Shown piece by piece: positions 7,719 to 28,782 of a stretch of 40,233 bases of DNA (position 1 is the stretch's first letter; each line of letters opens with the position of its first letter). The DNA is from a phage, in sequence record PZ445540.1; one strand, 5' to 3'. The notes beneath the pieces are model-generated. The model worked only from the letters and a program-made list of their open reading frames with translations, was not told the origin of the DNA and searched no databases. The position numbers and the translations under genes were made by a program.

Positions 7719-10700
7719 TTGATGGCAACATTACGTGAGTTAATAATCAAAATTTCCGCTAACTCGCAGTCATTCCAGTCGGAAATTTCCCGCGCCTCAC
7801 GCATGGGGCAGGATTATTACCGAACCATGCAAAATGGCGGTCGGCAGGCTGCCGCTGCCGCCCGAGAGAGCGAAAGGGCGTTATCTGATCTGACCGCTGG
7901 GTTTGCATCGGCAGGAAGAGCCGCTGCTGCTGCTACGGCCGCTTTTGCGACTGGTAAGCTCGTGCAGATTGCTGATGAGTGGAATTCAGTAAACGCCCGT
8001 CTTAAGCAGGCATCATCTTCAGCTGATGATTTTGCTGCCTCTCAGCGCCAGTTAATGGAAATCAGCCAAAGAACTGGCACCGCGTTTTCAGACAACGCAA
8101 ACCTTTTTTCACGCGCAGCTGCTTCAATGCGTGAGTTTGGGTATAGCTCTGACGAAGTTCTGAAAATTACCGAAGCTGTTTCTACCGGCCTTAAACTTTC
8201 GGGGGCTAATACTCAGGAAGCGAGTTCTGTTATCACTCAATTCAGCCAGGCTCTGGCGCAGGGCGTTCTTCGCGGTGAAGAATTCAACGCCGTTAACGAA
8301 GCAGGTGATCGTGTTATCCGCGCACTTGCCGCCGGAATGGGCGTGGCCCGCAAAGACCTGAAGAGCATGGCTGACCAGGGGCAACTTACGATTGATAAGG
8401 TTGTTCCTGCATTAATGAGCCAGTTGGGCTCATTACAGGGTGAGTTTGCCAGCATGCCGCAAACAGTTTCCGGATCCCTGCAAAAAGTCACAAACTCGTT
8501 CATGGCATGGGTTGGAGGTGTCAACCAGGCTACAGGTGCTACCGATGCGCTATCTGGTGGCCTAGACGGAGTTGCCCAAACGCTTGATTCATTTACCTCT
8601 TCGGCAGTAAGCGGCGCACTAAGTGATGTTGCAGACAATATGTCCACGATCACAACAGTGGCGGGTGCACTTGTTGGCGTTGGGCTGGCAAGGTATCTCA
8701 GTGGAGTAGTAACTAGCGCCACGAGCGCAACCGGCGCGCTAATTTCTGCGGCTAAGTCAGAGGTTGCTCTTGCCGTTGCACAGGATAAGGCTGCACAGTC
8801 TGCCGTTGCCGCCTCAAGGGCGGAGGTTTATAGGGCTCAGCAAGCTGTACAGAGATCGCGTAGCGCAGATGTTCAGGCTGCGCAGCAAGAGAAAATTGCT
8901 GCGGCAGAAGCAAAAGTCACTGCAGCCCAGGCCAGGCTGACTACCGCTCTAGCCAGCGGTTCTGCTACAGAGAAAGTCAGGGCCAGAACTGCACTTGAGC
9001 GTGCACAGGCAGGGCTGGTGGCTGCAAAAAATTCTGACGCTCAAGCTGCTGCAGAAAGGCGTCTGTCCGCGACCCAGGCTTCCTTAAACCGGAACCTTGC
9101 AAACCGTGTTTCGGCTCAAAGCAATCTCAATAGCGTGACATCCGTCGGCACTCGGCTCATGAGTGGTGCACTTGGTCTCATCGGTGGAGTTCCTGGTTTA
9201 GTTATGTTGGGTGCTGGAGCCTGGTATGCGATGTATCAAAACCAGGAGCAGGCACGTCGCTCTGCCCAGGAATACGCCAGTCAAATCGACGAAATACGAG
9301 AAAAAACTTCCCGCATGTCTTTGTCTGAAACAGACGACAATAGGGGGAGAACTGTTGGTGCTCTGGTAGAGCAAAATCGTTTGGTTGATGAGCAAGCCAA
9401 AAAGGTTGGTGAGCTGAAGAACCAGATCGACGATTTGAATGCATCGCGTGGAAAACCGGGCATTACCAGCGAGAACGATGCAAATATACTGAGAGCGATA
9501 GCTATCGTTACGGATCAACTTGCTGTTGAAGAGGGAAAATTAAATGACATGCGAGATAAATCTCGCGGCATACAGCAGGCTCTCGAAGAAATTGAGCGAC
9601 GTCGCAATGATTTAATACGCGAACAAGCCTGGCGACAGAATGCGGTATATCAGTCGATGATCATGATGAATGGTCAGCATACTGAATTTAACCGTCTGCT
9701 GGGGCTGGGAAATCAGCTATTAATGGCCCGGCAAGGGCTGGCGAACGTCCCTCTCAGACTTCCTCAGGCCGACCTCGACAAAAAGCAAACCGATGCCCTC
9801 GAAAAGAGCCGTCGGGATCTTGAGTTGTCACGCCTGAAGGGTGAGGCCAAAGAGCGCCTGCGTCTGAGTTATGCAGCCGATGACCTGGGGTTAACCAGTG
9901 ATCCGCAATTCCAGACAGGCCGTCAGGAGTTGATTAATAACGGTCTTGCTGAATGGCGGAATAATGAGGCCAACAAACCTAAGGCGAAGGGTGGTAAAAC
10001 CGAAGGCGAGAAAACCGAGGATGTGTATAAGCGCCTTATCAAGCAGCAAAAAGAGCAGATTGCCCTGCAAGGCCAGAATACTGAACTGGCGAAGGTTAAA
10101 TACCAGGTCAGCCAGGGCGAGCTTGCTTCTCTGACAGAAGCCCAGAAAAAGACGGTATTGCAGAATGCTGCGCTCATTGACCAGGTTAAATTGCGTGAGC
10201 AACTGCGAAATTACGAAGCCAACCTTGCTGACAGTAACGCCAGCGCCCGCGCAGCCAATGAAGCGCAACTGCTGGGCTATGGGCAGGGAACCAGGTTCCG
10301 TGAAAGACTTCAGGAGCAGTTCAATCTGCGTAAGGAGTTTGAGCAGAAGAATACCGATCTTCTCCGCCAGCGTCAGGCTGGTGAAATCGACGAGACGTTC
10401 TATCAGCAGGGGCTGGCACTTAATAAGCGCTACCTCGAAGAGCGCCTGCGCGACCAGGAGGGATATTACGCAGCTTCTGATGCTCAGCGTGACGACTGGA
10501 TGACGGGACTGTCTGAGGGTTATGCGAACTGGGTGGACGAAGCCACTGATTATTCTTCCATGGCCGCTGACGGCATGAAGCAGGCCATGGGTGGCGCGGT
10601 CACCACGATCACCGACATGCTCAATGGCAACGTTGACAGCTGGAAGGACTGGGGCGTGAGCGTACTGAAGATTATCCAGAACGTTCTGGTGAACATGGCT

Positions 10701-11198
10701 GTTGCTAATGGCGTCAGCTCAATTGGATCACTGTTCAGTTTTGGTGCCTCGTCAGCCGCAACCGCCAGCAGCGGTACCGCTATTCAGAATGCTGGCGCGA
10801 ACTTCACATTTAATGCGAAGGGTAATGTTTACGACTCTCCGTCCCTGAGCGCTTACAGCAATGGCGTTTTCCAGACGCCTCAGCTGTTTGCTTTTGCCAA
10901 AGGCGCAGGGGTTTTTGCCGAGGCTGGGCCGGAAGCGATCATGCCACTTACCCGCGCGCCGGATGGTTCTCTCGGCGTTCGTGCGGTCGGAGGTGGCGGC
11001 GGTCAGTCTGTATCTTCGGCGCCACAGGTTTATATCACCATCGATGGCAACGGCAACACTCAAACACAGGCCTCGCCAGGCCTTGAGCAATTTGGTGCCG
11101 AGGTCGGGGAATTTGTTGATCGACGTTATAAGCAGAATGTGATGCGTGACATTCGTCCCGGCGGCGACATCTGGAACGCAATGAAAGGAACCCGATAA
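7719..11198 (+). CDS. tail tape measure protein
   Basis: 1159 aa, Ala/Gln-rich coiled-coil protein with C-terminal Gly-rich segment; canonical position. Confidence 0.9.
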   Translation: MMATLRELIIKISANSQSFQSEISRASRMGQDYYRTMQNGGRQAAAAARESERALSDLTAGFASAGRAAAAATAAFATGKLVQIADEWNSVNARLKQASSSADDFAASQRQLMEISQRTGTAFSDNANLFSRAAASMREFGYSSDEVLKITEAVSTGLKLSGANTQEASSVITQFSQALAQGVLRGEEFNAVNEAGDRVIRALAAGMGVARKDLKSMADQGQLTIDKVVPALMSQLGSLQGEFASMPQTVSGSLQKVTNSFMAWVGGVNQATGATDALSGGLDGVAQTLDSFTSSAVSGALSDVADNMSTITTVAGALVGVGLARYLSGVVTSATSATGALISAAKSEVALAVAQDKAAQSAVAASRAEVYRAQQAVQRSRSADVQAAQQEKIAAAEAKVTAAQARLTTALASGSATEKVRARTALERAQAGLVAAKNSDAQAAAERRLSATQASLNRNLANRVSAQSNLNSVTSVGTRLMSGALGLIGGVPGLVMLGAGAWYAMYQNQEQARRSAQEYASQIDEIREKTSRMSLSETDDNRGRTVGALVEQNRLVDEQAKKVGELKNQIDDLNASRGKPGITSENDANILRAIAIVTDQLAVEEGKLNDMRDKSRGIQQALEEIERRRNDLIREQAWRQNAVYQSMIMMNGQHTEFNRLLGLGNQLLMARQGLANVPLRLPQADLDKKQTDALEKSRRDLELSRLKGEAKERLRLSYAADDLGLTSDPQFQTGRQELINNGLAEWRNNEANKPKAKGGKTEGEKTEDVYKRLIKQQKEQIALQGQNTELAKVKYQVSQGELASLTEAQKKTVLQNAALIDQVKLREQLRNYEANLADSNASARAANEAQLLGYGQGTRFRERLQEQFNLRKEFEQKNTDLLRQRQAGEIDETFYQQGLALNKRYLEERLRDQEGYYAASDAQRDDWMTGLSEGYANWVDEATDYSSMAADGMKQAMGGAVTTITDMLNGNVDSWKDWGVSVLKIIQNVLVNMAVANGVSSIGSLFSFGASSAATASSGTAIQNAGANFTFNAKGNVYDSPSLSAYSNGVFQTPQLFAFAKGAGVFAEAGPEAIMPLTRAPDGSLGVRAVGGGGGQSVSSAPQVYITIDGNGNTQTQASPGLEQFGAEVGEFVDRRYKQNVMRDIRPGGDIWNAMKGTR

Positions 11199-11200
11199 TT

Positions 11201-11539
11201 ATGGCCATTGAAACTTTCACCTGGTGCCCTCGGATTAACGCGGAGGCTGATACAAGTTTCCGCGTCAGGAAAGCCCAGTTTGGCGATGGATATGAGCAGG
11301 TTTCAGGGGATGGATTGAACACCAGAACTCAGCAGTGGACGCTTAACTTCACTGGCAACGAAACCTACATTTCTGCCATTAAGTCTTTTCTCGACAGGCA
11401 TGAAGGAACGAAAGCCTTTCAGTGGAAGCCGCCGCTCGAGCCTTTGGGTTTGTATCGTTGCGAAACGTATAAACCCACCGGGCTGGGCGCGGGGAAATTC
11501 AACCTTGAAGCAACATTCATCCAGGCATTTAAACCATGA
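11201..11539 (+). CDS. minor tail protein (lambda M-like)
   Basis: 112 aa immediately after the tape measure; size and position match lambda gpM. Confidence 0.75.
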   Translation: MAIETFTWCPRINAEADTSFRVRKAQFGDGYEQVSGDGLNTRTQQWTLNFTGNETYISAIKSFLDRHEGTKAFQWKPPLEPLGLYRCETYKPTGLGAGKFNLEATFIQAFKP

Positions 11540-12294
11540 GCTTAAACGCAGACTATCAGAAGCTTGAATCCGGAAACGATGTTCGTCTGATTGAGGTGGA
11601 CGGTTCTTCCTTTGGGCTAACGGACGTTCTCCGCTTTCACAATTACCGCATTCCCCACACGGAAGCGGAAATCATCGCCGCTGGTGGGGATGAGTCCAAG
11701 CTTCCGGCGAAACCAATCTGGTGGCAGGGAAATGAATACGCCGCCTGGCCGTATCAGTTGGAAGGCCTGGAAAAATCAACCAGTGGGAGCAATGCAACGC
11801 CATCACTGACGGTTGCGAACATCGAAAGCTCTATTTCTGCCCTGTGTCTTGCCTATGACGATCTGCTGCAGGCGAAAGTCACTATTCACGACACAAAAGA
11901 GAAATATCTCGATGCCAGAAATTTCGCGGACGGCAACCCCACAGCAGACCCGACTCAGGAAAAGCTGCAGGTCTGGTATATCGACGGGAAAACGGGCGAG
12001 CTTGCCGGTGAAACCGTTGAATTTGTTCTGTCCAGCCCGATGGACCTGCAGGGGCAAATGATCCCGACGCGACAGCTTCATTCCCTGTGTACCTGGTGCA
12101 TCCGGAATAAATATCGTACCGGCGACGGCTGCGACTATGCCGGCACCCGCTATTTCGATAAAAACAACAACCCGGTAAGCGATCCGTCGCTGGATGAATG
12201 CAACGGCACGCTGACGGCCTGCAAACTCCGATTCGGCGAAAATAACGAACTCTCGTTTGGTGGCTTCCCGGGCACGTCTTTGATCAGGAGCTGA
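11536..12294 (+). CDS. minor tail protein (lambda L-like)
   Basis: 252 aa; C-terminal Cys cluster (CTWC...C...C...C) as in lambda gpL; overlapping start. Confidence 0.78.
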   Translation: MSLNADYQKLESGNDVRLIEVDGSSFGLTDVLRFHNYRIPHTEAEIIAAGGDESKLPAKPIWWQGNEYAAWPYQLEGLEKSTSGSNATPSLTVANIESSISALCLAYDDLLQAKVTIHDTKEKYLDARNFADGNPTADPTQEKLQVWYIDGKTGELAGETVEFVLSSPMDLQGQMIPTRQLHSLCTWCIRNKYRTGDGCDYAGTRYFDKNNNPVSDPSLDECNGTLTACKLRFGENNELSFGGFPGTSLIRS

Positions 12295-12295
12295 T

Positions 12296-13006
12296 ATGCG
12301 GCAGAAAACCATTGATGCCATTATGGCGCATGCTGCAGCTGAATATCCTCGCGAATGCTGCGGCGTGGTGGCGCAGAAAAGCCGCGTTGAACGTTATTTC
12401 CCGTGCCGGAATCTTGCCGCGGCGCCGGAGGACAATTTTGTCCTTTGCCCAGAAGACTATGCAGCTGCTGAGGACTGGGGCACGGTGATCGCCATCGCGC
12501 ACAGTCACCCTGATGCCACGACACAGCCGAGCGAACTGGATAAAGCGCAATGCGATGCAACGCTTTTACCCTGGCACATCGTGAGCTGGCCTGAGGGGGA
12601 TTTACGCACCATCCAGCCGCGCGGAGAACTGCCGCTTCTGGAGCGTCCGTTTGTGCTTGGACACTTCGACTGCTGGGGGCTGGTAATGAGCTATTTCCGG
12701 CAAACACATGGGATTGAGTTGCACGACTACCGGGTTGATTATCCCTGGTGGGAAAACGACTATCCGGATAACTTCTATCAGGACTGTTGGTATGAGTGCG
12801 GATTCCGTGAATTCGACGGGCCACCGAAACCCGGAGATATGGTGATCATGCAGGTCCAGGCTGATAAGTGGAATCACGCGGGGATTCTTCTGGAGGGAAA
12901 TATGCTACTCCACCACCTGTATGGACATCTGAGCCAGCGCGTGCCGTATGGTGGCTATTGGCAGGAAAGAACGATGAAGATTTTACGTTACAAATCTCTG
13001 TGCTAA
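12296..13006 (+). CDS. tail assembly protein (lambda K-like; JAB/MPN + NlpC/P60)
   Basis: 236 aa; 'AIAHSHPD' JAMM-type motif and Cys/His hydrolase-like C-terminal half. Confidence 0.78.
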   Translation: MRQKTIDAIMAHAAAEYPRECCGVVAQKSRVERYFPCRNLAAAPEDNFVLCPEDYAAAEDWGTVIAIAHSHPDATTQPSELDKAQCDATLLPWHIVSWPEGDLRTIQPRGELPLLERPFVLGHFDCWGLVMSYFRQTHGIELHDYRVDYPWWENDYPDNFYQDCWYECGFREFDGPPKPGDMVIMQVQADKWNHAGILLEGNMLLHHLYGHLSQRVPYGGYWQERTMKILRYKSLC

Positions 13007-13038
13007 CCTCTTGTTAATTTAAACAAGGGGATGATGGA

Positions 13039-13560
13039 ATGAGGAATGTTTTAATTTTAGCGTTTGTCACATTTTTGTTTGGCTGCACTGAAAGAGCGCG
13101 ACCAGCAGATGAAATCGATCATGAAAGTGGACTGGTTAAAATATTCAGCACTAAAAATTTTAATACTGCGCAAGATAGGGCTGATATTCTTTGCGGCAAA
13201 AAATCATATTATGTGAAAGCTCTTCATGAAAGTAATTTGGTACTTTTAAGAAACAACCTCTCCGACGTATATTTGTTCGATTACATTCCTTTTCAGTGTG
13301 AGCTGAAAGCTGCCGCAAACGCGGGAAACTCTGAAGCTAAAGCGCTCTATGACAAAAAACTTACTGATGCATATCGTAATCTTGAAGAGTCTAAAAGAAA
13401 TCAGTACGAAGCGCATAAAGCTTATGCCAAAAAGCATGGGATTGATTCATATAGCACAGTAAACCCTGATGGCAGCATAGAGGCTCACACCATAGATTCC
13501 AGCGGTAACGCTTGTCATAGCACTGTCGGTATATATGGAGGGGAAACAGTCTGTGACTAA
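13039..13560 (+). CDS. lipoprotein of unknown function (moron)
   Basis: 173 aa; N-terminal signal with lipobox LFGC; ~38% GC; inserted between the K-like and I-like tail genes. Confidence 0.5.
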   Translation: MRNVLILAFVTFLFGCTERARPADEIDHESGLVKIFSTKNFNTAQDRADILCGKKSYYVKALHESNLVLLRNNLSDVYLFDYIPFQCELKAAANAGNSEAKALYDKKLTDAYRNLEESKRNQYEAHKAYAKKHGIDSYSTVNPDGSIEAHTIDSSGNACHSTVGIYGGETVCD

Positions 13561-13597
13561 TTTATGTTGCTTTAATTAGTCAATTTTCGAGGTTCAT

Positions 13598-14176
13598 ATG
13601 ACAGAAAATATGACTCAAATTGAACTCGGTGGCATTCTGGGTAAAACATTTGGGAAAATGCACTACCGGCTTATTAGTAAGACCAGTGAGGCTACTCGCA
13701 GTTTAGCGGCAACACTGGACGGTTTTGAGAAGTTTATGATCTCCAGCCAGCGGAGGGGATTAACATATGCTGTTTTTAAGGGTAAGAAAAATATAGGTCT
13801 GGATGATTTAGGCTTTCCAGTTTCCGGTGAAGTAATCCGGATTGTCCCTGTAGTAATAGGAAGTAAAAAAGCGGGATTACTGCAAACAATTCTCGGAGCG
13901 GTATTAGTGGTAGTGGGTGTGGTTACCTCTGCATATGGTGGAGCACCATTGATCGGCGCAGGTATTGGTATGATGGCTGGTGGTATCGTCCAAATGCTAT
14001 CCCCTCAGCCAACCGGACTGGCCAGCAAGCAAAGTGCAGATAACCGCGCATCATACGCGTTCGGTGGAGTGACAAACACCGCTGCTCAGGGCTACCCGGT
14101 ACCGCTGCTTTATGGTCGCCGGCGAATCGGTGGGGCAATTATTTCCGCCGGAATTTATGTCGAGGATCAGCAATGA
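13598..14176 (+). CDS. tail assembly protein (lambda I-like)
   Basis: 192 aa; position between the K-like gene and J; Gly-rich hydrophobic C-terminal half. Confidence 0.65.
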   Translation: MTENMTQIELGGILGKTFGKMHYRLISKTSEATRSLAATLDGFEKFMISSQRRGLTYAVFKGKKNIGLDDLGFPVSGEVIRIVPVVIGSKKAGLLQTILGAVLVVVGVVTSAYGGAPLIGAGIGMMAGGIVQMLSPQPTGLASKQSADNRASYAFGGVTNTAAQGYPVPLLYGRRRIGGAIISAGIYVEDQQ

Positions 14177-14439
14177 AAAAATACTTGAGATTGACTATTT
14201 CAGGCCTGCATCGCGTGGATGACGGAATCCTAATCGGCGGAAATGCGACAGTAATAGTAAACCGTGGCGGAGAGGTTATTTGTCGCGAGACACTTTCTGG
14301 CAAAGTTTCCGATAAATATTCAAAGCTATATGAAGTTGAAGATACCCTTATTCCAGTATCAGTAACGTCGTCCAGTGATTGTCCGTTTTTCAGAGCTGAA
14401 GCTGACTTTGTAAATCCATTTAGCGAAACAAACATCTAA
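14173..14439 (+). CDS. hypothetical protein
   Basis: 88 aa ORF whose ATG overlaps the I-like stop (ATGA); followed by an intrinsic terminator. Confidence 0.4.
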   Translation: MKKYLRLTISGLHRVDDGILIGGNATVIVNRGGEVICRETLSGKVSDKYSKLYEVEDTLIPVSVTSSSDCPFFRAEADFVNPFSETNI

Positions 14440-14458
14440 CTAATTTTCTTCAGAAATA

Positions 14459-14483
14459 AGCCAACTTCGGGTGGCTTTTTTTA
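14459..14483 (+). terminator. intrinsic terminator upstream of J
   Basis: agccaacttcgggtggct followed by TTTTTTT. Confidence 0.55.
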
Positions 14484-14493
14484 TGGGCGCAAT

Positions 14494-17400: not shown

Positions 17401-17670
17401 ACCCAGTATTCGCCGTTCGCTGTGGTTAATGGACAGGTCTTTATCAGCTCAGCGTTTATTCAGGATGGCACGATCACCAATGCCAAAATCGGCAACTTCA
17501 TCCAGTCCAATAACTACGTTGCTGGGTCTATCGGATGGAGGCTGGATAAAAGTGGCACACTGGAAATGAATGGTGCCACATCAGGGCAGGGCAGATTAAC
17601 GCTGAATAATACCCGCATGGATGTTTATGATCAGAATGGAACGCTTCGCGTAAGAATAGGACAATTATGA
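14494..17670 (+). CDS. host specificity protein / central tail fibre (lambda J-like)
   Basis: 1058 aa; size, position after the I-like gene and fibronectin-III-like central region. Confidence 0.88.
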   Translation: MATEKVLKGRKGGSSSSRTPTEQPDDLQSVAKAKILVALGEGEFAGQLTGKDIYLDGTALENADGSQNFSGVTWEFRAGTQAQKYIQGIPGTENEISVGTEVSSTTAWTRTFTNTQLSAVRLRLKWPSLFKQENDGDLVGYSINYAIDLQTDGGIWHTVLNTSVTGKTTSGYERSHRIDLPQAGSTWTIRLRKITADANSAKIGDTMTLQSFTEVIDAKLRYPNTALLYIEFDSSQFNGSIPQISCEPRGRVIRVPDNYDPETRTYFGTWTGAFKWAWTDNPAWIFYDLVVSDRFGLGHRLSAANIDKWTLYQVAQYCDQRVPDGKGGSGTEPRYTCNVYIQDRNDAYTVLRDFAAIFRGMTYWGGNQIVALADMPRDVDYSYTRANVIDGRFTYSSSTTKSRYTTALVSWSDPDNAYADAMEPVFEQSLVARYGFNQLEMTAIGCTRQSEANRKGRWGILTNNKDRVVSFDVGLDGNIPQPGYIIAVADELLSGKVMGGRISEVNGRVIRLDRVPDATAGDRLILNLPSGASQSRTIQAVNGESVTVTTTYSETPQPEAVWLVESNELYAQQYRVVSVSDNNNGTFSITAAFHDPDKYARIDTGAIIDQRPISVIPPGNQSAPANIVISSFSVVQQNISVETMRVSWDQAKNAIAYEAQWRRNDGNWVNMPRSSTTSFDVPGIYAGRYLVRVRAINAAEISSGWGYSEEKTLTGKVGNPPKPVGFTATGINWGIRLNWGFPANTGDTLKTEIQYTANSDFSDPLLLSDVPYPSAEYTQLGLKAGQEFWYRAQLVDRTGNESGYTDWIRGMSNDNADDYLGDIADDFLTSADGERLTGDIDTNIEGILQNALANHGTVEHQWAQYGEVRADILVVKTTIAEVDNAMAELSTQVQAQIEDVTASLEDKLTAVVDASGASAIYTLKTGVRINGIMYNAGMSIAVLAQAGQPIVTRVGFNANQFVLMSGSGDTQYSPFAVVNGQVFISSAFIQDGTITNAKIGNFIQSNNYVAGSIGWRLDKSGTLEMNGATSGQGRLTLNNTRMDVYDQNGTLRVRIGQL

Positions 17671-17933
17671 TGATAAAATTTTTGGCTATTACAACCTGTT
17701 TTATCCTGACTGGATGCGCTTATAAAGAATCAACGGTTGCTGCTGACTGCACAGCAGTTTATACGCTGAAAACATTTGTGGTCGGAGGTGATTATCCTGT
17801 CAAGATTAATGCGGTCAGGCATGACAGATTTGGGCGAGTTTATTATCGTGCAGCACCAGGGCAATCGTATGTGAATTTTTATGGTCGCTGGCAGCCAGCG
17901 GCTTCATTTAAGCATGGAGACTGCCCACGATGA
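17670..17933 (+). CDS. small lipoprotein (Cor/Llp-like superinfection-exclusion candidate)
   Basis: 87 aa; signal peptide with lipobox LTGC; start overlaps the J stop; position immediately 3' of J. Confidence 0.45.
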   Translation: MIKFLAITTCFILTGCAYKESTVAADCTAVYTLKTFVVGGDYPVKINAVRHDRFGRVYYRAAPGQSYVNFYGRWQPAASFKHGDCPR

Positions 17934-18202
17934 GCTATGGATACCAAATATTTGATGCTACTGGGGTGGATGTAACTGGCCTGATCACCCCCGTATTTTT
18001 CCTTGACAAGTTGACATCGCCATCAGGGACCAAAACATACCCTGCCCCACCGGCAGGTAAAACGCTTAAGGCATTAGTGATAAATTCCATGCTCTGGAAT
18101 GGTTCTACAGGTAATTCGTCAGTTAGCGTCAGCGGAAATACTGTGACGTGGAGCGGTCTTGCAGGGAATTCTACATTTTTTGCCATGGTTTACTGGGGGT
18201 AG
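17930..18202 (+). CDS. hypothetical protein
   Basis: 90 aa; RBS GGAGA; begins MSYGYQIF, the same motif as the next gene. Confidence 0.4.
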   Translation: MSYGYQIFDATGVDVTGLITPVFFLDKLTSPSGTKTYPAPPAGKTLKALVINSMLWNGSTGNSSVSVSGNTVTWSGLAGNSTFFAMVYWG

Positions 18203-18204
18203 TG

Positions 18205-18822
18205 ATGTCATATGGTATGCAGATTTTGCGGCCGGACGGAAATTTATGGCTAAGTCCTGAGGTAACACCGATGAACCTTATTGATAAAGGTGTCATGGCT
18301 GGAACTAAGGGCGAGGTATTTCAGACGCGCATCCCATCAGGAATACCGGCTATCTTCTTTGTAAGAATGCAGAATGAATTGTACGCATCATTCAGCCAGA
18401 TTGACCAAAACGGATACAACTCACTCAGGATCGATGCTAATGCAGGTGTGGGGAGTATCCATATTTATGCTTTTGCTGCGATGGTAGTTGCTCCTCCAGC
18501 ATTTGGGATCGCGATGTATGACGCTTCAGGGAAAATGATTTATCACGGAAATATGAGGCCACTTGAGTGCTATCAGGTTGCAAGTCAGGGAACAAAAACC
18601 CGTATTGATGTTGGATATCTTGCCGCCGTGTGTCCTGTGCAGATGTCAGTATATTCAGTTGTTAACTCATCGGTTGGTGGATGGAATATATTCGTATCTT
18701 CATCATCAGCAAGTGGAAGCATTGTTTCCACGCCAAGCCGACAAGTTGCAAACACATCTGGTCCGGCAGGGTTCATATGGAGCAATTCAATGTTGGTCAT
18801 TAATGCATCAAAATATGATTAA
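18205..18822 (+). CDS. hypothetical protein (shares N-terminal motif with upstream gene)
   Basis: Internal ATG at 18205 with RBS GGGGG; ~205 aa; begins MSYGMQIL. Confidence 0.45.
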   Translation: MSYGMQILRPDGNLWLSPEVTPMNLIDKGVMAGTKGEVFQTRIPSGIPAIFFVRMQNELYASFSQIDQNGYNSLRIDANAGVGSIHIYAFAAMVVAPPAFGIAMYDASGKMIYHGNMRPLECYQVASQGTKTRIDVGYLAAVCPVQMSVYSVVNSSVGGWNIFVSSSSASGSIVSTPSRQVANTSGPAGFIWSNSMLVINASKYD

Positions 18823-18831
18823 GGAGTCATA

Positions 18832-20001
18832 ATGTCTGCAGGAACTATCACCCTGACAAATGGGTCCGCTGTTGTTGCCGGTACCGGAACCTCATTCGCA
18901 ACCGAGCTCGCCGCTGGTGATTTCATTGTTTCGACTGTGGGCGGTGTGCCCTACACGTTGCCGGTGAAAACAGTCGACAGTAATACCCAACTGACGCTAG
19001 TCAGCAACTTTACCGGGCCAACACAATCCGGCGCAGCCTGGTCTGCCGTTCCTCGCATTGCACTCAATATGGTTACGGCTGCGCTGGTGGCGCAAAGTGC
19101 CGAAGCACTACGAGGCCTGAACTACGACAAACGGAACTGGCAGCAGGTCTTCAGTGGAGCGGGGGATATCACTGTCACAATGCCGGATGGAACACAGTAT
19201 TCCGGTCCATCATGGCCTTCAATTGTCTCCTCTGTCAGCGGAAAGCTATCCTCTGACGCAACTACTCTAAGAAAGCTATTCACCGCTGCATTTGTGAATC
19301 CAGGGGATAACTGGCCGTATCCAGGAGTTACTACATATAATAACAATTTGTGGGGAAGCCCCAGCCAGTGGGGGACTGTACTTACGCTCTCTAATCAGGA
19401 TGTATCAGGTAGTAGTTACGATGGGCGCTGGTATAGTTACCTTCAGATAGATACCACTGGCAACTTTGCCGTTGCAGCGAACATTAACAATAACTTCTTC
19501 GGTGTCTACAGGGTCTGGACTACTAAAAACACAACTGTTGATGGCTCAGGCTTCATCAAGCGCGCCTCGCCGATTGCAAGACTGGTCGCAGACACTTCAA
19601 TTATGAGCGGCGAGTTTACTGACTCGTTTAAAATCTCCGGCAGCGGTGCGGTTAATGAAGAGGCGGAAGGTGTTGATATCGAAAAGCTGGGTGATGGTAG
19701 GTATCGGATTTCCGGTTCTGACGGTCTCGCACAGGATGGGTGGCAGATCGAAGTGCCGAAAGATATTAACGGCAATCGACTTTGCTTTGTTGAGGTCACG
19801 GAGGGTCTTGAGGGTATTCTTTTAAAAGTATTCAAGCCAAAACTTGACCTTGAAACTGGAGGGATCATTGCCGGTGAGTCTTTTGACATTCCAGAGGGGC
19901 GCTGGATTGATGTGAGGCTGCAAATGCCAGCAAGCTCAGCATACAATGTCGTTCAGGGAAAAATCGCAGGGCAACTTGAATCTCAGCAAATGGCCGGATA
20001 A
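18832..20001 (+). CDS. tail fibre protein
   Basis: 389 aa; strong RBS AAGGAG; Gly/Ser/Thr-rich N-terminus typical of fibre proteins; position distal to J. Confidence 0.6.
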   Translation: MSAGTITLTNGSAVVAGTGTSFATELAAGDFIVSTVGGVPYTLPVKTVDSNTQLTLVSNFTGPTQSGAAWSAVPRIALNMVTAALVAQSAEALRGLNYDKRNWQQVFSGAGDITVTMPDGTQYSGPSWPSIVSSVSGKLSSDATTLRKLFTAAFVNPGDNWPYPGVTTYNNNLWGSPSQWGTVLTLSNQDVSGSSYDGRWYSYLQIDTTGNFAVAANINNNFFGVYRVWTTKNTTVDGSGFIKRASPIARLVADTSIMSGEFTDSFKISGSGAVNEEAEGVDIEKLGDGRYRISGSDGLAQDGWQIEVPKDINGNRLCFVEVTEGLEGILLKVFKPKLDLETGGIIAGESFDIPEGRWIDVRLQMPASSAYNVVQGKIAGQLESQQMAG

Positions 20002-20007
20002 ACCAGC

Positions 20008-20036
20008 ATAAAAAAGCCCTGCGACCGGGCAATGAC
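20008..20036 (-). terminator. minus-strand intrinsic terminator
   Basis: Reverse complement reads gcccggtcgcagggc followed by TTTTTTAT. Confidence 0.45.
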
Positions 20037-20265
20037 TCAGCCGCGCCTCTCTGAGCAGGCTACGGGGTGGGTAATTTGAGATTAGTCACCCATAAACGAA
20101 GCCGCCAGATTAAAATTTCAGCGCCAACAGTGGCTTTACAAAACAGTGAGCCGTTTCGCCTTGATCAAATCTACCGATCGATATTACTGTTTATCCATGG
20201 GTCTTCCCTTGTTGTGGTGGCTGAAGGCATGATAATGGCGTATTAAATCGCCAGAGGTCACCACC

Positions 20266-20598
20266 ATGGACGAAAAGTCCCTCTATGCACATATCCTCAA
20301 CTTGTCAGCTCTGTGGCAGGTAAAGTCTCTTTCTCTCGATGAAAATACCGCTTCTGTTACCGTTACTGTCGGAATCGCTGAAAAATACTCAGTTGACCTG
20401 TCGTTAAAAGTGACGCAAGGAAGCGTCCTGCTTATCCGCCTGGCTGGCGAACTGCAGTTTGCAAAATTGATGGGTGAATCGTTTATCACAGAGGATGGTG
20501 AGGCGATAGAAGGCGAATCGTTGGAGGATGTGATCGTTGTAGGCAGGGTGACTTATTTTGTTAATCGGGCAGGGGAAGATGACTGCCCGATACTTTAG
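20266..20598 (+). CDS. hypothetical protein (b-region)
   Basis: 110 aa ORF with RBS AGAGG; no recognisable motifs. Confidence 0.4.
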   Translation: MDEKSLYAHILNLSALWQVKSLSLDENTASVTVTVGIAEKYSVDLSLKVTQGSVLLIRLAGELQFAKLMGESFITEDGEAIEGESLEDVIVVGRVTYFVNRAGEDDCPIL

Positions 20599-20926
20599 AA
20601 ATGATGTGTACATATTGGTGTACTTTATTTCTTTTTAAAGAATAAAAAACTACATAAAAAACATAAAGTTGTTCTGTTGTGTAACTATATCCACTGCAGT
20701 ATTTGAGGGCGGACGTACTGAGCTTAAAGACGGAGCGGTAGTTGAGAAAACCTAATCGGTCGATGTTACCGGCGCTTCAGCAGCGCTTCACCATGAGGCT
20801 ATTCTGGCTTTAATGGATCAAATTGAAGATTTAAAGAAACAGGTAGAGGCATTACAGCCAGGAAGTTGATGAAACCGCCGCTCATCGTAAGCAATGATGG
20901 GCGGCGACAGATTGCCCGAACAATCT

Positions 20927-21193
20927 CTACAGGCCAACCTGGCGAACAGTCGGGAACTCTGAAACCAGCCACATATCGGACTCTTCAAACATTTCCTCCA
21001 GCATGCGGTTCAGCTTTTCCCGATCGCTTTTGCTGGCATCGCTATTCAGGCCGTTCGCCTGCATCGGCTTTACCTTCACTTCGGCATCAGGAAAAATTTT
21101 GTGCACCCGCTTTGTTAGTTCAGCCAGGATGATCTCTCTGGCCCCTTCGAGCCCCTCAACATTACGCTTGTCATAAACCAGTTCTACGAACAT
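20927..21193 (-). CDS. dinI: DinI-like SOS-inducible protein
   Basis: Internal ATG at 21193 with GGAG RBS gives 88 aa; 'ELTKRVHKIFPDAEVKV...DMWLVSE' aligns with the E. coli DinI pattern; LexA box in the promoter. Confidence 0.75.
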   Translation of the reverse strand: MFVELVYDKRNVEGLEGAREIILAELTKRVHKIFPDAEVKVKPMQANGLNSDASKSDREKLNRMLEEMFEESDMWLVSEFPTVRQVGL

Positions 21194-21208
21194 AAATGCT
21201 CCGCTAAT

Positions 21209-21228
21209 CACTGTTTGAATATACAGTA
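21209..21228 (-). promoter_or_regulatory. LexA (SOS) box upstream of the DinI-like gene
   Basis: caCTGTttgaatatACAGta matches CTGT-N8-ACAG with an AT-rich centre, 16 nt upstream of the start codon. Confidence 0.6.
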
Positions 21229-21256
21229 TTTTTGCTTTGGCGGTTTTGTCTGTCAA

Positions 21257-21547
21257 GGCATGAACAACTTGTTTTTATATTTTGGGGAACGTACTGCTGG
21301 CGTGTTTGTTATCGATTAGCCCTACAGGGCTGATGTGGTCTGGCGCTGACTAAAATTATGCGTGGGGCATGGATGGGGCAAAAGTGGTCTGTGAAGTTCG
21401 TTAAAGTTCGTTAATCAAGCTTTATCTCGATCTCTCTCATCCCTTGTTTAAAGCGCTCCTGGACGATCTTTATCGATTTTAAAAACTATGAGTTCATATT
21501 ATACAAATGTAGCAATAGTGCTGCTAACCATTTGAATATAAAGTTTT
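21257..21547. other. candidate attP region
   Basis: Non-coding stretch directly 3' of int; tandem 10-bp repeat agttcgttaa x2 (21395-21414) and a GATGGGGCAAAG motif shared with the int 3' end. Confidence 0.35.
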
Positions 21548-22840
21548 CTACTGCGCTACTAACATGCCTTGGGGCAGCGATGGGGCAAAGCGTGAAAGCG
21601 CCTGGTTAAGCAGAGAAACCTGTTCGGCACTCTTCTCTGACATCCACTTTCCATACACTTTGTAAACCATCTGAGCATCTGTATGCCCCATCTGAGTTGC
21701 TATAAAGTTTGGGTTTGCCCCAGCTGATAATGACCAGCACGCATAAGTGTGTCGTGACTGGTAGGCGTTGCGGTACCGTATTCCGGCGCGCTTGATTATC
21801 GGGGCCCAAATTTTATTAATCGAATTAACCGCGTAGTGATATCCTCTACGAGGCCCATGCTTGACGCATTGAGGACTGAAAACGAAAGTGCAGGGGTGTA
21901 TGACTGACTGGCCATATTCCCGCAATTTCACTTCAATCTCATACTGCCGGCCAAGGCGCGTCAGCTGGGCCTGATTCCTCAGGGCATCAATAGCTGGTTG
22001 AATGAGATAAATCACCCTGTCAGTGCCTGCGTCGGTTTTTGGCAGGGTGAACTCATTCGTCTGGGTAAGGTTGCGTTTCACTGTGATGGTTCCGGCATGC
22101 AGATCGATATCTTCCCACGCCAGACCGCACAACTCCCCATGCCTCATTCCAGTATAGACTGCCAGCGACCAGAGATTTCTCATCTGCTGGTGGCCGCAAG
22201 CCTGGATAAACCGGATAAACTCTTCTGTCGTGAGTGGGTCTGGTTCACCTTTCGCTTTTTTGAGACGGTTAATTCCGCTAAACGGGTTTTCCTTTGCGTA
22301 GCCGTTATCAGCTGCAAACTGGAAGATCTCGGCCATCAGCATCATGTAATTATTCACGGTCGAAGACTTCCTGCCTTGAACCTGTGTCCGGTGATCCTTC
22401 TTCATTACATGAAAACCCGTCAGCAACTCCTTTCTCACGTACAGCAAATCCTCAGTGGTCACCGCAGAAACCATTTTGTTTTCGCCGATGCGCGGAAGCA
22501 TGTTTTTTATGATGGATTCGTAACGACTCATAGTGTTAGAGCTGATTTCCATCCTCTTCAGCTCAGACCACTTTTCGGTAAGCTCCAGCACAGTAATTTC
22601 CTTTCTATCCTGACCGAACCGGGCAAGGTTCGGTGAGTTTGGGAATTTTTCCGCATAGTCAAAATTTCCCATCCTTATCGCAAAACAAACTGAAGAACGC
22701 AGCTCACCAGCTATCTTGCGATTTTTTGCAGTGTCAGGGACACCGAGGTTTTCCCTGACACGTTTACCTTTATACAGAAACCAGATGCGGAGCGAACCGC
22801 CGTGGTTTTCGACGCCTGTCGGGTATGATGCATTAGCCAT
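21548..22840 (-). CDS. int: tyrosine integrase
   Basis: Start set at ATG 22840 (RBS AGGAGGG), 430 aa; C-terminal catalytic region with 'HTYACW' motif typical of tyrosine recombinases. Confidence 0.9.
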   Translation of the reverse strand: MANASYPTGVENHGGSLRIWFLYKGKRVRENLGVPDTAKNRKIAGELRSSVCFAIRMGNFDYAEKFPNSPNLARFGQDRKEITVLELTEKWSELKRMEISSNTMSRYESIIKNMLPRIGENKMVSAVTTEDLLYVRKELLTGFHVMKKDHRTQVQGRKSSTVNNYMMLMAEIFQFAADNGYAKENPFSGINRLKKAKGEPDPLTTEEFIRFIQACGHQQMRNLWSLAVYTGMRHGELCGLAWEDIDLHAGTITVKRNLTQTNEFTLPKTDAGTDRVIYLIQPAIDALRNQAQLTRLGRQYEIEVKLREYGQSVIHPCTFVFSPQCVKHGPRRGYHYAVNSINKIWAPIIKRAGIRYRNAYQSRHTYACWSLSAGANPNFIATQMGHTDAQMVYKVYGKWMSEKSAEQVSLLNQALSRFAPSLPQGMLVAQ

Positions 22841-22884
22841 TGATCCCTCCTGACGTCCAGGAGCGTGGACGAGTGTACTGCTTT

Positions 22885-23139
22885 TCATGCTGTCTTCGCA
22901 CCTGGTTGATTTTTTTTCTGCGCCTCGATCCACTGATCAACGGCTTTTCTGTTGTACATGCATTCGCTCGAAGGCTTTGGATTGCCATCGGGTGAGATGT
23001 GCAGGTACTCGCGGCCCAGCATCCAGGATTCTTTTCTGGCGCGGGTGATGGTTCCGGGCTTGAGCCCGGTAACCGCAATCAGAACCTTTTCGCTAACCCA
23101 GTCATTCGGCACCAAAAGAACAACATCGCTCATACCCAC
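22885..23139 (-). CDS. xis: excisionase-like DNA-binding protein
   Basis: 84 aa; immediately upstream of and overlapping the int reading frame; RBS GAGGTG. Confidence 0.55.
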   Translation of the reverse strand: MGMSDVVLLVPNDWVSEKVLIAVTGLKPGTITRARKESWMLGREYLHISPDGNPKPSSECMYNRKAVDQWIEAQKKNQPGAKTA

Positions 23140-23195
23140 CTCACATCACAATCAGATCACGGCAGTGGAACCACACATTATTCAAATTGACCATT

Positions 23196-23528
23196 TCATC
23201 CATTGGCGGCCTCCTTGCTGAATCCAGCATTGATAACGCTTTTGGCAATTTCGCTGGCGGTGGCGTAGGCCAGCTCTCCATCCTCACCACCAACAGCTTT
23301 CATCAGTTCATTCTTGAGAACGCTCTCGTAATCGCGTGGCCAGAATTCCGTGGGCATGTCGAAGGCCATGCAGTAGAAGAAGGTGTCGATCGTTATTTTG
23401 GCGGCCTCCTCCTCTGTTCTCTCAGGCTGGCGATAACCAGCTTCCCAGATAGCATCGGTCATTGCAGAGGGATCGCCGGCAGCGGATTTAATCAATTGAA
23501 CAAGCTCGAACAAATTCGACTCACTCAC
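23196..23528 (-). CDS. hypothetical protein
   Basis: 110 aa acidic ORF in the early-left operon. Confidence 0.4.
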   Translation of the reverse strand: MSESNLFELVQLIKSAAGDPSAMTDAIWEAGYRQPERTEEEAAKITIDTFFYCMAFDMPTEFWPRDYESVLKNELMKAVGGEDGELAYATASEIAKSVINAGFSKEAANG

Positions 23529-23904
23529 TGCACACCTCCATTTCCCTTTCTACGGACTCACAGCAGCGGCGGAAAATTTCAGCTGATACCTCATTCATCA
23601 GGGCCCTGATGAGCAATTCATCCCGCGATTTTTGACGCTCAATATTTCTCTCTCGCTCCAATTGACGCAATACGGCCAGGCGGGCAGTGATACGTTTCCG
23701 TGTGTTCTGCCACTTAACCCGCGCTACATTTGCCCGGTGCCGCCAGCCGTAGTCGTTGTCGATAACGGTTTCAAGCTGCGAATTGATACTGGCAATGACA
23801 TCTTCAGCCGTGACCAGCGCCTGCAGGTGGTCGTTTATTGTGACCAGTTGGTTAACATCAATGGATTCAGCTTTCATCCAACAATCCTCCAAAGCAGCTT
23901 GCAT
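23521..23904 (-). CDS. hypothetical protein
   Basis: 127 aa; RBS GGAG; Arg/Glu-rich central segment. Confidence 0.4.
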   Translation of the reverse strand: MQAALEDCWMKAESIDVNQLVTINDHLQALVTAEDVIASINSQLETVIDNDYGWRHRANVARVKWQNTRKRITARLAVLRQLERERNIERQKSRDELLIRALMNEVSAEIFRRCCESVEREMEVCSE

Positions 23905-23999
23905 ACTCCGATAAAACAGTAGAACCCCGCTGTTAACCCAATCCCCGTAAGGCTGGAGAAGAAAAGAGTAAACATCACCAGCTCAGATACTTTTTTCAT
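23874..23999 (-). CDS. small hydrophobic peptide (41 aa)
   Basis: Hand-translated MKKVSELVMFTLFFSSLTGIGLTAGFYCFIGVCKLLWRIVG; one predicted TM helix; overlaps the start of the downstream gene. Confidence 0.25.
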   Translation of the reverse strand: MKKVSELVMFTLFFSSLTGIGLTAGFYCFIGVCKLLWRIVG

Positions 24000-24418
24000 T
24001 GGCCCGCACCTTTCTTAGTAGCAGTGATGTAACCTTCCAATCCGCCATAACTGTTCACCATATCCCCCAGTCTTGAGAAACAGGCGTTCAACCAGCGAAT
24101 TCCACGAGGGGTTAGCGTTGGCACCGTGCCCCAGTCGATGAAATCCGAGTTTTTTCGACCCATATAGCGGATGAGATCGAGAATGTTGATGTAATGTGCA
24201 CGGCGACGCTCCATACTCCATCCCTTATCAGCGAGGTACGAGTCGATGAATCCCTGTAATGCTGTCTGATTAAGCGAAATATCACCGTACTGGTGGCGAT
24301 ATACAGGGCGACGGTGCAGGCTGACCAAATGAAACAAGTAGGCATCACATACACATGTCAGAGCCTGCCGGTGGGCCAGCTCAATAGAGCCAGCCGGATT
24401 CCAGATATCATTATTCAC
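23996..24418 (-). CDS. hypothetical protein
   Basis: Start tentatively GTG 24418 (RBS GGAGGG 8 nt upstream, just after the Lar-like stop), ~140 aa; the longer 182-aa ORF would overlap the Lar-like gene. Confidence 0.35.
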   Translation of the reverse strand: MNNDIWNPAGSIELAHRQALTCVCDAYLFHLVSLHRRPVYRHQYGDISLNQTALQGFIDSYLADKGWSMERRRAHYINILDLIRYMGRKNSDFIDWGTVPTLTPRGIRWLNACFSRLGDMVNSYGGLEGYITATKKGAGQ

Positions 24419-24419
24419 T

Positions 24420-24671
24420 TCAGAAACCCTCCGGCTTAATGATCTGAAATCGCCCCACTGATGGGTGCTCAAGAATTTGGTATGAATCTGTCGCTTCTTT
24501 CGGCCGTGGTGCTCGCTGGTTCCAGATGGCCGCAGCCATATCACGAGCTTGCGGAGCTAGACTCACACTGCAGCAATCGCAACGGACTACAAACATTGGC
24601 TCGCCTTCATAAAGCACAGAATCGAAATCTATTTCATCGTTGCCACAAAGTGGGCAAGGAAGCAGTTCCAT
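24420..24671 (-). CDS. lar: Lar-family restriction alleviation protein (zinc ribbon)
   Basis: 'LLPCPLCG...VVRCDCCSV...AAAIWNQRA' fits the Lar-family pattern CPxCG...CxxC...A..WN.R. Confidence 0.6.
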   Translation of the reverse strand: MELLPCPLCGNDEIDFDSVLYEGEPMFVVRCDCCSVSLAPQARDMAAAIWNQRAPRPKEATDSYQILEHPSVGRFQIIKPEGF

Positions 24672-25537
24672 TATTTGGCCTCCGGTGAATAAATCGCTTT
24701 GTCGTGGCTGTACTCGCCATTCAAAGTCTTTTTCATTGGCAGCTCACCTTTCATGTACAGCTGATACAGACGGTGACAGCCTTTCTCCAGCAGTACTGGC
24801 GTAAACTTCGTGAAAGCATCCTTGCCGTGCGGGGTGATCTGCGTCTGGTCTTCCGTCAGATATTTGTCGCGGGCATATGAGGCGACGCGCCAGCGCGGAT
24901 CTTTCTCTGGGTCGCGTTGCTCGTTAAACACCCAGCCACGCTCGGACGCCCACCACATCATTTTGTTGATGTTGACGCCGTTCAGCGCCTTGCTGAATGC
25001 TGGGATCGTCATGCCTTTGGTGAAGTGCTTCTCCAGGCTTTCAACAGTGGCGCTGAGGGTCCTGGTTTCGAGTGCAGCGGCTTCGGCGCGTTCTTCGGCT
25101 TCAATTACCATCAAGGCAAGTTCTTTTCGGCTAAGTGTCAGCGGTGTTGCCGGCGTTGCAATAGAGGCGCGGCGGGTGAAATAAAACTCAGCCATATCGT
25201 CGTAGAATTCCCAGGACTGATCTGTCTCGAGAATTTTGGCGTGGTTAGCTGCACCGCGTTCAGTCCAAAGAGTCAGGGTGCGAGCTTTGCTTGAGATTTG
25301 CAGTCCGCTGAAAGAGTTGCGCAAAATTTCAACATCTCCGCCAGAAAGCTTGAAGTAATGTTTACCTTCAACGAACCGGGATTTGTTGCGGTTGAAGTTG
25401 TTGGTGATCATCTGCTCGGTTGCGCCATATCCTGCCGCCAGCTGTTCAGTGGTCACAACTCGCTGACCGCGATACTCGATGATCTGCAGGTCACGGGCCG
25501 CTACTGGTGCTAATTCTGCTTTCATTGCCATCTTCAT
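24671..25537 (-). CDS. phage antirepressor (ORF6N/KilA-N-type N-terminus + antirepressor C-terminus)
   Basis: 288 aa; N-terminal 'RVVTTEQLAAGYG...FVEGKHYFKLSG' resembles the ORF6N domain of Ant/Bro-type proteins. Confidence 0.65.
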   Translation of the reverse strand: MKMAMKAELAPVAARDLQIIEYRGQRVVTTEQLAAGYGATEQMITNNFNRNKSRFVEGKHYFKLSGGDVEILRNSFSGLQISSKARTLTLWTERGAANHAKILETDQSWEFYDDMAEFYFTRRASIATPATPLTLSRKELALMVIEAEERAEAAALETRTLSATVESLEKHFTKGMTIPAFSKALNGVNINKMMWWASERGWVFNEQRDPEKDPRWRVASYARDKYLTEDQTQITPHGKDAFTKFTPVLLEKGCHRLYQLYMKGELPMKKTLNGEYSHDKAIYSPEAK

Positions 25538-28036: not shown

Positions 28037-28744
28037 TCACCCATGCTTCCTGTAGGTCTGCGGCATGCTGCCGATCACCTTTCCGAAGATGAAAATTTTG
28101 TTCATCTCTTCCTTCTCGATTGGTTCCCATGGTAGATAGGTATGGTTGTCAGAGATAACTAAGAGTTTGTCTTTCATCTTTTGTAAGCGCTTAACATGCG
28201 ATGTGTCATCGTAGATGAACGCGTATATACCGTCGCCGTCGAAATGCTGAACGCTGATATCGACGAAGAGTAAGTCCCCTGGCTCTATGGTGCCAGACAT
28301 GCTATCGCCTCGAACGTTGATGATGCGTATCTGCTCCTGTTTCCGGCCATTAAACATTTGACGGGCATCTTCAACTGAGTATTCCACGGAGCGCAGCACC
28401 TCCACGAATTCGCTGTTAATTATGCCCGGGCCAGCACTTACGGTAAGGTCGAGTACGTCAACTCTGAAGATGGCTGGATCTTTTTTGTTATTCATCGGTG
28501 GGGGTGGTTGTTGGTCGTCACCCCTCATTGGTCCAGTACCGTTTGATAGCCACTCCGAACGAACACCCAGGGCATTAGCTATTTCAACGATTTTAGTTGT
28601 GCCTCTAGCATTTCCAGATGTTATTCGCCATATGGTTGGTTGTGCCATATTCGCCGCTTTGGCTAACTGACCCTGGCTCATGCCCATCTCATGCATTGCG
28701 TAGTTAAGTCTGTCAGCTAGCGTCTTAAGTGTTCTCTCTTGCAT
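28037..28744 (-). CDS. cI: CI-type repressor (HTH + S24 LexA-like peptidase domain)
   Basis: Start at ATG 28744 with GGAGG RBS, 235 aa; N-terminal HTH ('MSQGQLAKAANMAQPTIWRI'); C-terminal 'GDSMSGTIEPGD' Ser and 'HVKRL' Lys of the autocleavage dyad. Confidence 0.85.
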   Translation of the reverse strand: MQERTLKTLADRLNYAMHEMGMSQGQLAKAANMAQPTIWRITSGNARGTTKIVEIANALGVRSEWLSNGTGPMRGDDQQPPPPMNNKKDPAIFRVDVLDLTVSAGPGIINSEFVEVLRSVEYSVEDARQMFNGRKQEQIRIINVRGDSMSGTIEPGDLLFVDISVQHFDGDGIYAFIYDDTSHVKRLQKMKDKLLVISDNHTYLPWEPIEKEEMNKIFIFGKVIGSMPQTYRKHG

Positions 28745-28782
28745 ATTTATAGCCTCCGCTATCACATTCTAGTCAAGCATGA

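Follow-up and report, generated by a model that had tools for sequence, protein, structure and literature searches.

The phage sequence analysed here (record PZ445540.1), whose full 40,233 nucleotides are referred to as the window, carries a DinI-family gene of the MsgA type on its minus strand at 20927..21193, directly behind a single strong, predicted LexA operator. The reading favoured here, at a probability of roughly 0.6, is that of a LexA-repressed moron whose product would be made upon DNA damage and compete in the groove of the RecA filament, thereby damping or delaying the late SOS outputs including prophage induction. The gene and its regulation are a correct identification of a known kind, which is already annotated in an identical public sequence, and beyond the correct annotation the consequence is small. 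Still, the phage has one accessory gene wired directly to the SOS circuit of its host and no other LexA input, and is suited for testing whether a DinI-like protein raises or lowers the threshold of a prophage induced by CI cleavage or serves the host.

The coding sequence reads from an ATG at 21193 to a stop codon at 20927-20929 and comprises 88 codons plus stop. The translated product, MFVELVYDKRNVEGLEGAREIILAELTKRVHKIFPDAEVKVKPMQANGLNSDASKSDREKLNRMLEEMFEESDMWLVSEFPTVRQVGL, was assigned on the basis of the open reading frame and its translation, the Pfam family PF06183 and the match to the DinI structure 1GHH. A Shine-Dalgarno motif, GGAG, can be read from the sequence 5 nt 5' of the ATG (21199..21202, minus strand). 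A longer frame of 109 aa starting at a TTG (20927..21256) was rejected as an artefact because its TTG is the -35 hexamer of the promoter and the operator would fall inside the ORF. The 88-aa reading is right because conservation among the relatives begins exactly at M1, the homologues diverging directly upstream of this residue. Comparison of 70 distinct alleles resulted in a dN/dS of ~0.04 at a dS of ~0.49, the ratio being biased low because the loci were picked by protein identity, and the coding sequence appears to be under strong purifying selection.

As a side observation, gene callers tend to extend the DinI-like gene upstream across its own operator and promoter. Besides the 109-aa TTG ORF of the window, this concerns a 93-aa 'MsgA' in FSL SP-016 (locus L083, 1190..1471) as well as entries of 112-132 aa among the database homologues. 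The upstream over-extension results in a LexA box that is hidden within coding annotation.

The original prediction had aligned the 88-aa product with DinI, and this assignment holds at the level of sequence and of fold. The Pfam DinI profile (PF06183) was matched with E=1.5e-22 and 80.1 bits versus a gathering cut-off of 24.2, residues 16-76 of the protein covering positions 2-63 of the 63 in the profile. Likewise, PHROG 189, 'RecA filament binding protein DinI', was matched with E=7.7e-22. Among the solved structures the sequence matched DinI only, namely 1GHH, with E=3.8e-7 and 36% identity over an end-to-end alignment, and 7YWA, which represents DinI on the RecA filament. An AlphaFold2 model based on 23 close homologues reached a modest confidence (pLDDT 71) and is poor over residues 72-88, including W75 and L76. 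Compared to the PDB with Foldseek, it retrieved 1GHH and 7YWA as best matches (probability 1.0, TM 0.68-0.75), and no other PDB fold was found for it below E=0.07. The NCBIfam equivalog model of DinI, NF007893, scored 40.8 bits and thus below its threshold of 111. The window protein is therefore a paralogue of the MsgA/prophage type and not an orthologue of the chromosomal DinI; with a score so far under the cut-off, the same biochemical behaviour as that of DinI is not guaranteed. In their source records, the close relatives go by the names 'DinI family protein' or 'virulence protein MsgA'; they occur in Enterobacter, Escherichia, Salmonella, Citrobacter, Kosakonia and Leclercia.

Cryo-EM combined with mutagenesis located DinI in the groove of the RecA filament, where it makes two kinds of contact (Gao et al., 2023; PMC9926225). 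A hydrophobic pocket formed by L13, L21, W71, W77 and F78 of DinI takes up F203 of RecA, and an acidic patch consisting of E24, E69 and D76 contacts RecA (PMC9926225). In the alignment, the DinI residues L21, W71, W77, F78, E24 and E69 correspond to I22, F69, W75, L76, E25 and E67 of the window protein, all of which are invariant or nearly so across the subfamily. Six of the eight RecA-contact residues are hence kept or conservatively replaced. As to the other two, the charge of D76 at the acidic contact is lost by replacement with M74, with D73 being adjacent, and L13 of DinI falls into an ambiguously aligned loop where it has no confident counterpart but an invariant L15 nearby. Judged from the alignment, the RecA-binding surface seems to be largely, not wholly, kept in the window protein.

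The last nine codons (80-88; 20930..20956, minus strand) encode a C-terminal tail, FPTVRQVGL, which according to the alignments is present neither in DinI nor in the 79-aa forms of the MsgA type. Homologues occur in two lengths, one of 79 aa ending with WLVSE and one of 88 aa featuring FP(T/S)VRQ(V/I)G(L/M/V). A pN/pS of ~0.08 over codons 80-88 indicates purifying selection on the tail; with a pLDDT below 50 in this part, the AlphaFold2 model allows no structural inference. The RQVGL end resembles the C-terminal peptides by which Pol II (QLGLF) and Pol IV (QLVLGL) bind the beta clamp. It is conceivable, if rather improbable, that the tail gives the 88-aa forms a second partner beyond RecA and so links RecA filaments to another SOS component, in which case the phage protein would be more than a plain copy of DinI. 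The tail could also be a protease-recognition tag.

Upstream of the gene, the CTGT-N8-ACAG box proposed originally is indeed present as cactgtttgaatatacagta on the plus strand at 21209..21228 (gene-sense TACTGTATATTCAAACAGTG) and is the sole such match in the window. The loose CTGT-N8-ACAG pattern by itself is not significant, its one occurrence comparing with 0.45 expected and with at least one match in 35 out of 100 shuffled sequences. For the full 20-mer, a heterology index (HI) was calculated from a matrix rebuilt from 28 E. coli LexA sites, which were not taken from a database. On this scale the predicted operator reaches an HI of 3.1 and is better than 24 of the 28 E. coli sites of the matrix. 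The second-best 20-mer in the 40 kb, located within a tail gene, has an HI of 11.7, which equals the median best score of random sequence and hence chance level. None of 300 Markov-simulated 40-kb windows attained an HI of 3.1, the best simulated value being 6.25. The full 20-mer is significant, and the window contains exactly one strong LexA operator.

The operator adjoins a sigma-70 promoter, for which a promoter scan gave 10 of 12 matches (21228..21256, minus strand; -35 hexamer TTGACA at 21256-21251, 17-nt spacer, -10 hexamer AAAAAT at 21233-21228). This TTGACA-17-AAAAAT promoter is kept in the relatives of the same upstream class. As had been claimed, the box overlaps the promoter: its first base is also the last one of the -10 hexamer, and it spans the expected transcription start, with 15 nt between the operator and the ATG. 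The operators of sulA and umuDC show the same -10/+1 geometry.

A scan of viral contigs revealed at least 590 relatives, the best 80 of which (92-99% protein identity) were fetched. Together with the window, this gave 71 upstream regions that were long enough for comparison (at least 60 nt) and formed eight clusters with no sequence relationship to one another. Of the 71 regions, 65 contain a box with HI<9 no farther than 120 nt from the ATG, and at least seven unrelated layouts are represented among them, with the box situated between -35 and -10, after -10 (as in the window), or present as two tandem boxes. Regarding the six exceptions, five have an ISL3-family insertion sequence inside the box and one lies directly behind another ORF. 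Boxes with an HI of 1.7-4.8 precede the genes of phi80, HK140, mEp237, Fraca, the Gifsy-2 right end and FSL SP-016, and boxes identical or near-identical to that of the window occur in L008, L018, L028, Gifsy-2 and FSL SP-016. As near-identical proteins are encoded behind many unrelated promoters, each of which keeps a LexA box, SOS control is likely to have been selected. This provides strong comparative evidence for selection acting on SOS control itself.

These findings bear on the idea that the palindrome arose by chance or is a non-functional leftover, with the gene being constitutive or unexpressed. In favour of this idea, the loose pattern alone has an expectation of 0.45 per window, AAAAAT deviates from a perfect -10 hexamer, and remnants of insertion sequences and genes are strewn over the neighbourhood. 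However, the full 20-mer outscores 24 of the 28 E. coli sites and is matched in 0 of 300 simulated windows, boxes are retained across unrelated promoter layouts, homologous operators were SOS-responsive in experiments (PMC8072944), and the coding sequence is apparently under strong purifying selection. Such an explanation is consequently hardly credible. The LexA-repressed gene of the favoured reading agrees with the predicted SOS-regulated RecA modulator, which is supported by its family and fold, by six of eight RecA contacts, by an operator of high predicted affinity in a position suited to blocking RNA polymerase, by 65 of 71 relatives and by the induction reported for prophage dinI homologues of like geometry (PMC8072944; PMC3121763).

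The phage itself is an HK97-like lambdoid, temperate coliphage, which shares ~92% identity with HK97 and HK446 in its structural genes. The region of interest matches Escherichia phage SaltyDalty (PP925825) at 100% identity, and the SaltyDalty record already labels the identical gene as 'RecA filament binding protein DinI'. Prophages integrated next to pepN (L018, L028, L030) and the terminal part of the Gifsy-2 record are homologous to the window up to ~21502-21515, which marks attP; the approximate attP core, i.e., the right prophage junction, was accordingly assigned to 21493..21515. The integrase gene follows from 21548 onward on the same strand as the DinI-like gene. From the position of attP it follows that in a lysogen the DinI-like gene is the last one before attR and is transcribed inward. 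With its own promoter and operator and an orientation opposing the late operon, it is a self-contained accessory gene, a classic moron at the attR-proximal end.

The next gene past the 3' end of the DinI-like gene is convergent. A GC-rich hairpin recognized by RNA folding 22 nt past the stop codon (20874..20905, minus strand) is a possible weak terminator; it features a TTT tail only, its fold z of -1.4 is not significant, and a terminator scan called no intrinsic terminator after the gene. No minus-strand ORFs follow downstream other than two (20799..20972 and 20818..20988), which overlap the DinI-like gene at its 3' end and have no PHROG match, and neither the ORF list nor the PHROG profiles contained an antirepressor gene downstream of it. 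A CI-like repressor with an S24 self-cleavage domain is encoded at 28037..28765 (minus strand) according to its translation and matches to PHROG 4 and 6201. It exhibits the features of a cleavable repressor, with an Ala-Gly site in VSAGPG, the Ser in GDSM and the Lys in VKRL, and its residues 127-232 weakly match the LexA and UmuD models of NCBIfam. This CI is a lambda-type, RecA-stimulated self-cleaving repressor and the presumed RecA-dependent induction switch of the phage. In the HI scan of the window, no second LexA box was detected before the Ant-like gene (24671..25537), near cI/cro or elsewhere, so that SOS has no LexA route via the Ant-like gene.

LexA-controlled antirepressors linked to DinI do exist, as exemplified by Tum of coliphage 186, by PSP3 and by the dinI-gftA/gfoA operons of the Gifsy phages (PMC3121763). 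By analogy, the window protein might act on the phage repressor in a Tum-like manner and not on RecA. Tum is, like the product of the window gene, phage-encoded and LexA-controlled and includes a DinI-like segment (PMC3121763), but it has 146 aa with an extra N-terminal half that the window protein does not possess. A Tum-type identity was ruled out given the 88-aa length, the start fixed by conservation and the promoter and operator lying upstream. In the split tum region of PSP3, moreover, it is the upstream gene that encodes the antirepressor, with the downstream gene being the DinI homologue (personal communication in PMC3121763). The Gifsy antirepressors are encoded apart from dinI, by a small gene that follows it. 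A Gifsy-type operon of dinI and antirepressor was likewise rejected for the window, in which there is no credible downstream ORF and no PHROG match. What is encoded here is a bare 88-aa DinI domain, followed by a hairpin after the stop codon and overlapped at its 3' end by two small ORFs that match no family, and CI has a RecA-dependent cleavage apparatus of its own. An antirepressor function of the protein is thus very improbable.

For the favoured reading, a LexA-repressed protein that damps late SOS outputs, the following course of events can be proposed. In a lysogen, host LexA would occupy the operator, abutting the -10 hexamer and covering the transcription start, and the gene would be silent. 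The near-consensus operator would be vacated only upon strong LexA depletion, i.e., during strong or sustained DNA damage, and as the box is near consensus, derepression is expected to occur late, when LexA is largely gone. At that stage, slow substrates such as UmuD and CI would be cleaved. The 88-aa protein, like DinI, would then occupy the groove of activated RecA filaments and compete with these slow-cleaving clients, UmuD as well as the lambda-type CI of the phage. Late SOS outputs, prophage induction included, would in sum be damped or delayed. The S24-type repressor of the phage would use the same RecA groove as DinI (PMC9926225). Non-polar dinI deletions in Gifsy-1 and Gifsy-3 left induction unchanged (PMC3121763); these phages are induced via antirepressors and not by repressor cleavage, and the published deletions of dinI homologues comprise only such antirepressor-type Gifsy phages (PMC3121763). 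That the gene tunes prophage induction, as originally suggested, can plausibly be inferred. At moderate levels, DinI can stabilise RecA filaments, and for this reason it is uncertain in which direction induction would be shifted.

The same molecule and the same regulation would also be compatible with a selected role in lysogenic conversion, in which SOS mutagenesis, filamentation or toxicity is damped in favour of the stress survival of the host. The closest relatives carry the name 'virulence protein MsgA', and a contribution to survival has been suggested for Salmonella MsgA in macrophages and for prophage DinI-like proteins associated with quinolone tolerance. The gene sits where morons are classically found, at the end of the prophage; it is transcribed against the late operon and brings its own promoter and operator. 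Furthermore, induction was unaffected by deleting dinI in Gifsy phages (PMC3121763), and a DinI-like gene of a prophage has been connected with the appearance of quinolone-resistance mutations (PMC10575684). On the other hand, CI is a client of activated RecA, so that an effect on induction would be hard to avoid if the protein binds RecA filaments. The present data do not separate the benefit of the host from that of the phage, and the two are not exclusive. As the primary selected role, host benefit is a respectable but less probable explanation than the damping of late SOS outputs by a LexA-repressed RecA competitor.

Several known systems resemble the gene considered here. The genes of phi80 (dinL, PHI80_27), HK140, mEp237, HK225 and Fraca belong to the same DinI/MsgA family as the window gene. 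Like the latter, these phi80-type genes are located between the tail-fibre genes and int/attP and opposite to the late genes. They also have a strong LexA box just upstream, and their coding DNA is 84-92% identical to that of the window. The phi80 record (JX871397) marks a 'predicted LexA binding site' before dinL. Differences concern the position of the box, which in phi80 and mEp237 (TTGACACTGTATAAATAAACAGTATAAAT) is found between -35 and -10 at 38 nt from the ATG and in the window after -10 at 15 nt, and the length of the protein, phi80 dinL encoding 79 aa without the 9-residue tail compared to 88 aa in the window.

LexA directly controls the dinI homologues of Gifsy-1, -2 and -3 (PMC3121763). 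Their boxes lie ~19 bp from the ATG and have an HI of 3.9-5.3, and nalidixic acid induced the genes 4.6- to 23-fold (PMC8072944). Gifsy dinI is therefore a LexA-repressed prophage gene of the DinI family, which corresponds to the arrangement predicted for the window. It heads, however, an operon of dinI, antirepressor and irsA, in which the second gene encodes the antirepressor responsible for triggering induction, and is situated ~1.3 kb downstream of the replication genes, whereas the window gene stands alone at the attR end. The modes of induction differ as well, being antirepressor-driven in Gifsy and associated in the window with a cleavable CI and no antirepressor after the DinI-like gene.

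DinI of E. coli has the small alpha/beta fold, the length class, the acidic C-terminal helix and the LexA regulation in common with the window gene and its product. It differs from the latter by an identity of 36%, by D76 in place of Met, by the FPTVRQVGL extension that the window protein adds and by not being phage-borne. MsgA of Salmonella (macrophage survival gene A) belongs to the same subfamily as the window protein; proteins of the MsgA type consist of 79 aa without the tail. The LexA box of msgA has an HI of 11.9, and the gene was induced 3.4-fold (PMC8072944), this operator being much weaker than that of the window. The literature collection searched contained no publication on SaltyDalty and no tested phenotype of a coliphage DinI-like gene.

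Besides the gene itself, several observations were made on its surroundings. The record of SaltyDalty (PP925825.1; 36,900 bp) is 100% identical to the window wherever the two align. Window positions 7722-25000 correspond to only 13,946 bases in SaltyDalty, with ~3.3 kb of tail genes (~10520..13900) having no counterpart, which matches the difference in length between SaltyDalty and the 40,233-bp window. The SaltyDalty record ends inside the tape-measure gene. A probable attP architecture can be discerned, with TGGGGCAnnGATGGGGCAAA on both sides of the core (21363..21382 and 21570..21589) and a tandem pair of AAGTTCGTTA (21394..21413), both of which resemble arm-type sites of integrases. The att core itself lies near TTGCTACATTTGTATAATATGAAC (~21493..21515), and related prophages sit beside pepN, as does Gifsy-2. 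Just past the int stop, 21520..21547 represents an imperfect direct copy (28 nt, 75%) of the box region. It was rejected as a second operator, its half-sites being spoiled (CTGT to CCAT, ACAG to AAAG) and its HI amounting to 15; chance or an old duplication may account for its origin.

The right end of Gifsy-2 (locus L082; NC_010393.1, ~45150..45560) was found to harbour a second, unannotated dinI-like copy, which has the same promoter and LexA box (TACTGTATATACAAACAGTT) as the window. This copy retains the first ~62 codons, then diverges and stops, so that the RecA-binding C-terminal helix is lost.

The 110-aa ORF at 20266..20598 (plus strand), which is labelled 'UmuD-like protein' in SaltyDalty, was rejected as an intact partner gene, since it is a chimera of an ISL3 transposase N-terminus and a truncated UmuD'-like gene. 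Residues 1 to ~38 correspond to the N-terminal part of an ISL3-family transposase, which is found intact, with 406 aa, in locus L003 (1021..2241). The remainder represents the C-terminal two-thirds of a UmuD'-like protein of ~106 aa (phrog_3469), which is intact in locus L004 (1548..1868), begins at a GF(A/P)SPA motif after the UmuD cleavage site and is without the GDSM serine. The left-end remnant of the ISL3 element covers 20199..20384 (plus strand) within ~20184..20384. Directly on its left, ATTACTGTTTATCC can be aligned to the dinI leader and half LexA box (CTTGATC...TACTGTATAT) found next to this insertion sequence in relatives, and is the relic of a second, now gene-less, LexA-controlled promoter.

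In the relatives, the ISL3 element was encountered inside the LexA-box palindrome before the DinI-like gene (…TACTGTATATGC|ATGGGTCTTCCC…), namely in L003 at ~2326, in L026 at ~2961 and in three other loci. All five loci share one upstream class, and the gene is cut off in them from the -35 hexamer and half of the operator. The five insertions together with the relic in the window suggest that this element targets LexA-box palindromes.

Many relatives feature a single LexA box between two divergent units (L004, 1548..2470; HK140, L085, 689..1657), one being the DinI-like gene and the other an operon in which the gene of the UmuD'-like protein comes after that of a 79-aa protein (phrog_3893). 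The DinI-like, 79-aa and UmuD'-like genes could form a three-gene, SOS-wired module at the prophage end. The annotators of HK140 noted a similarity to a 'DNA polymerase V subunit'.
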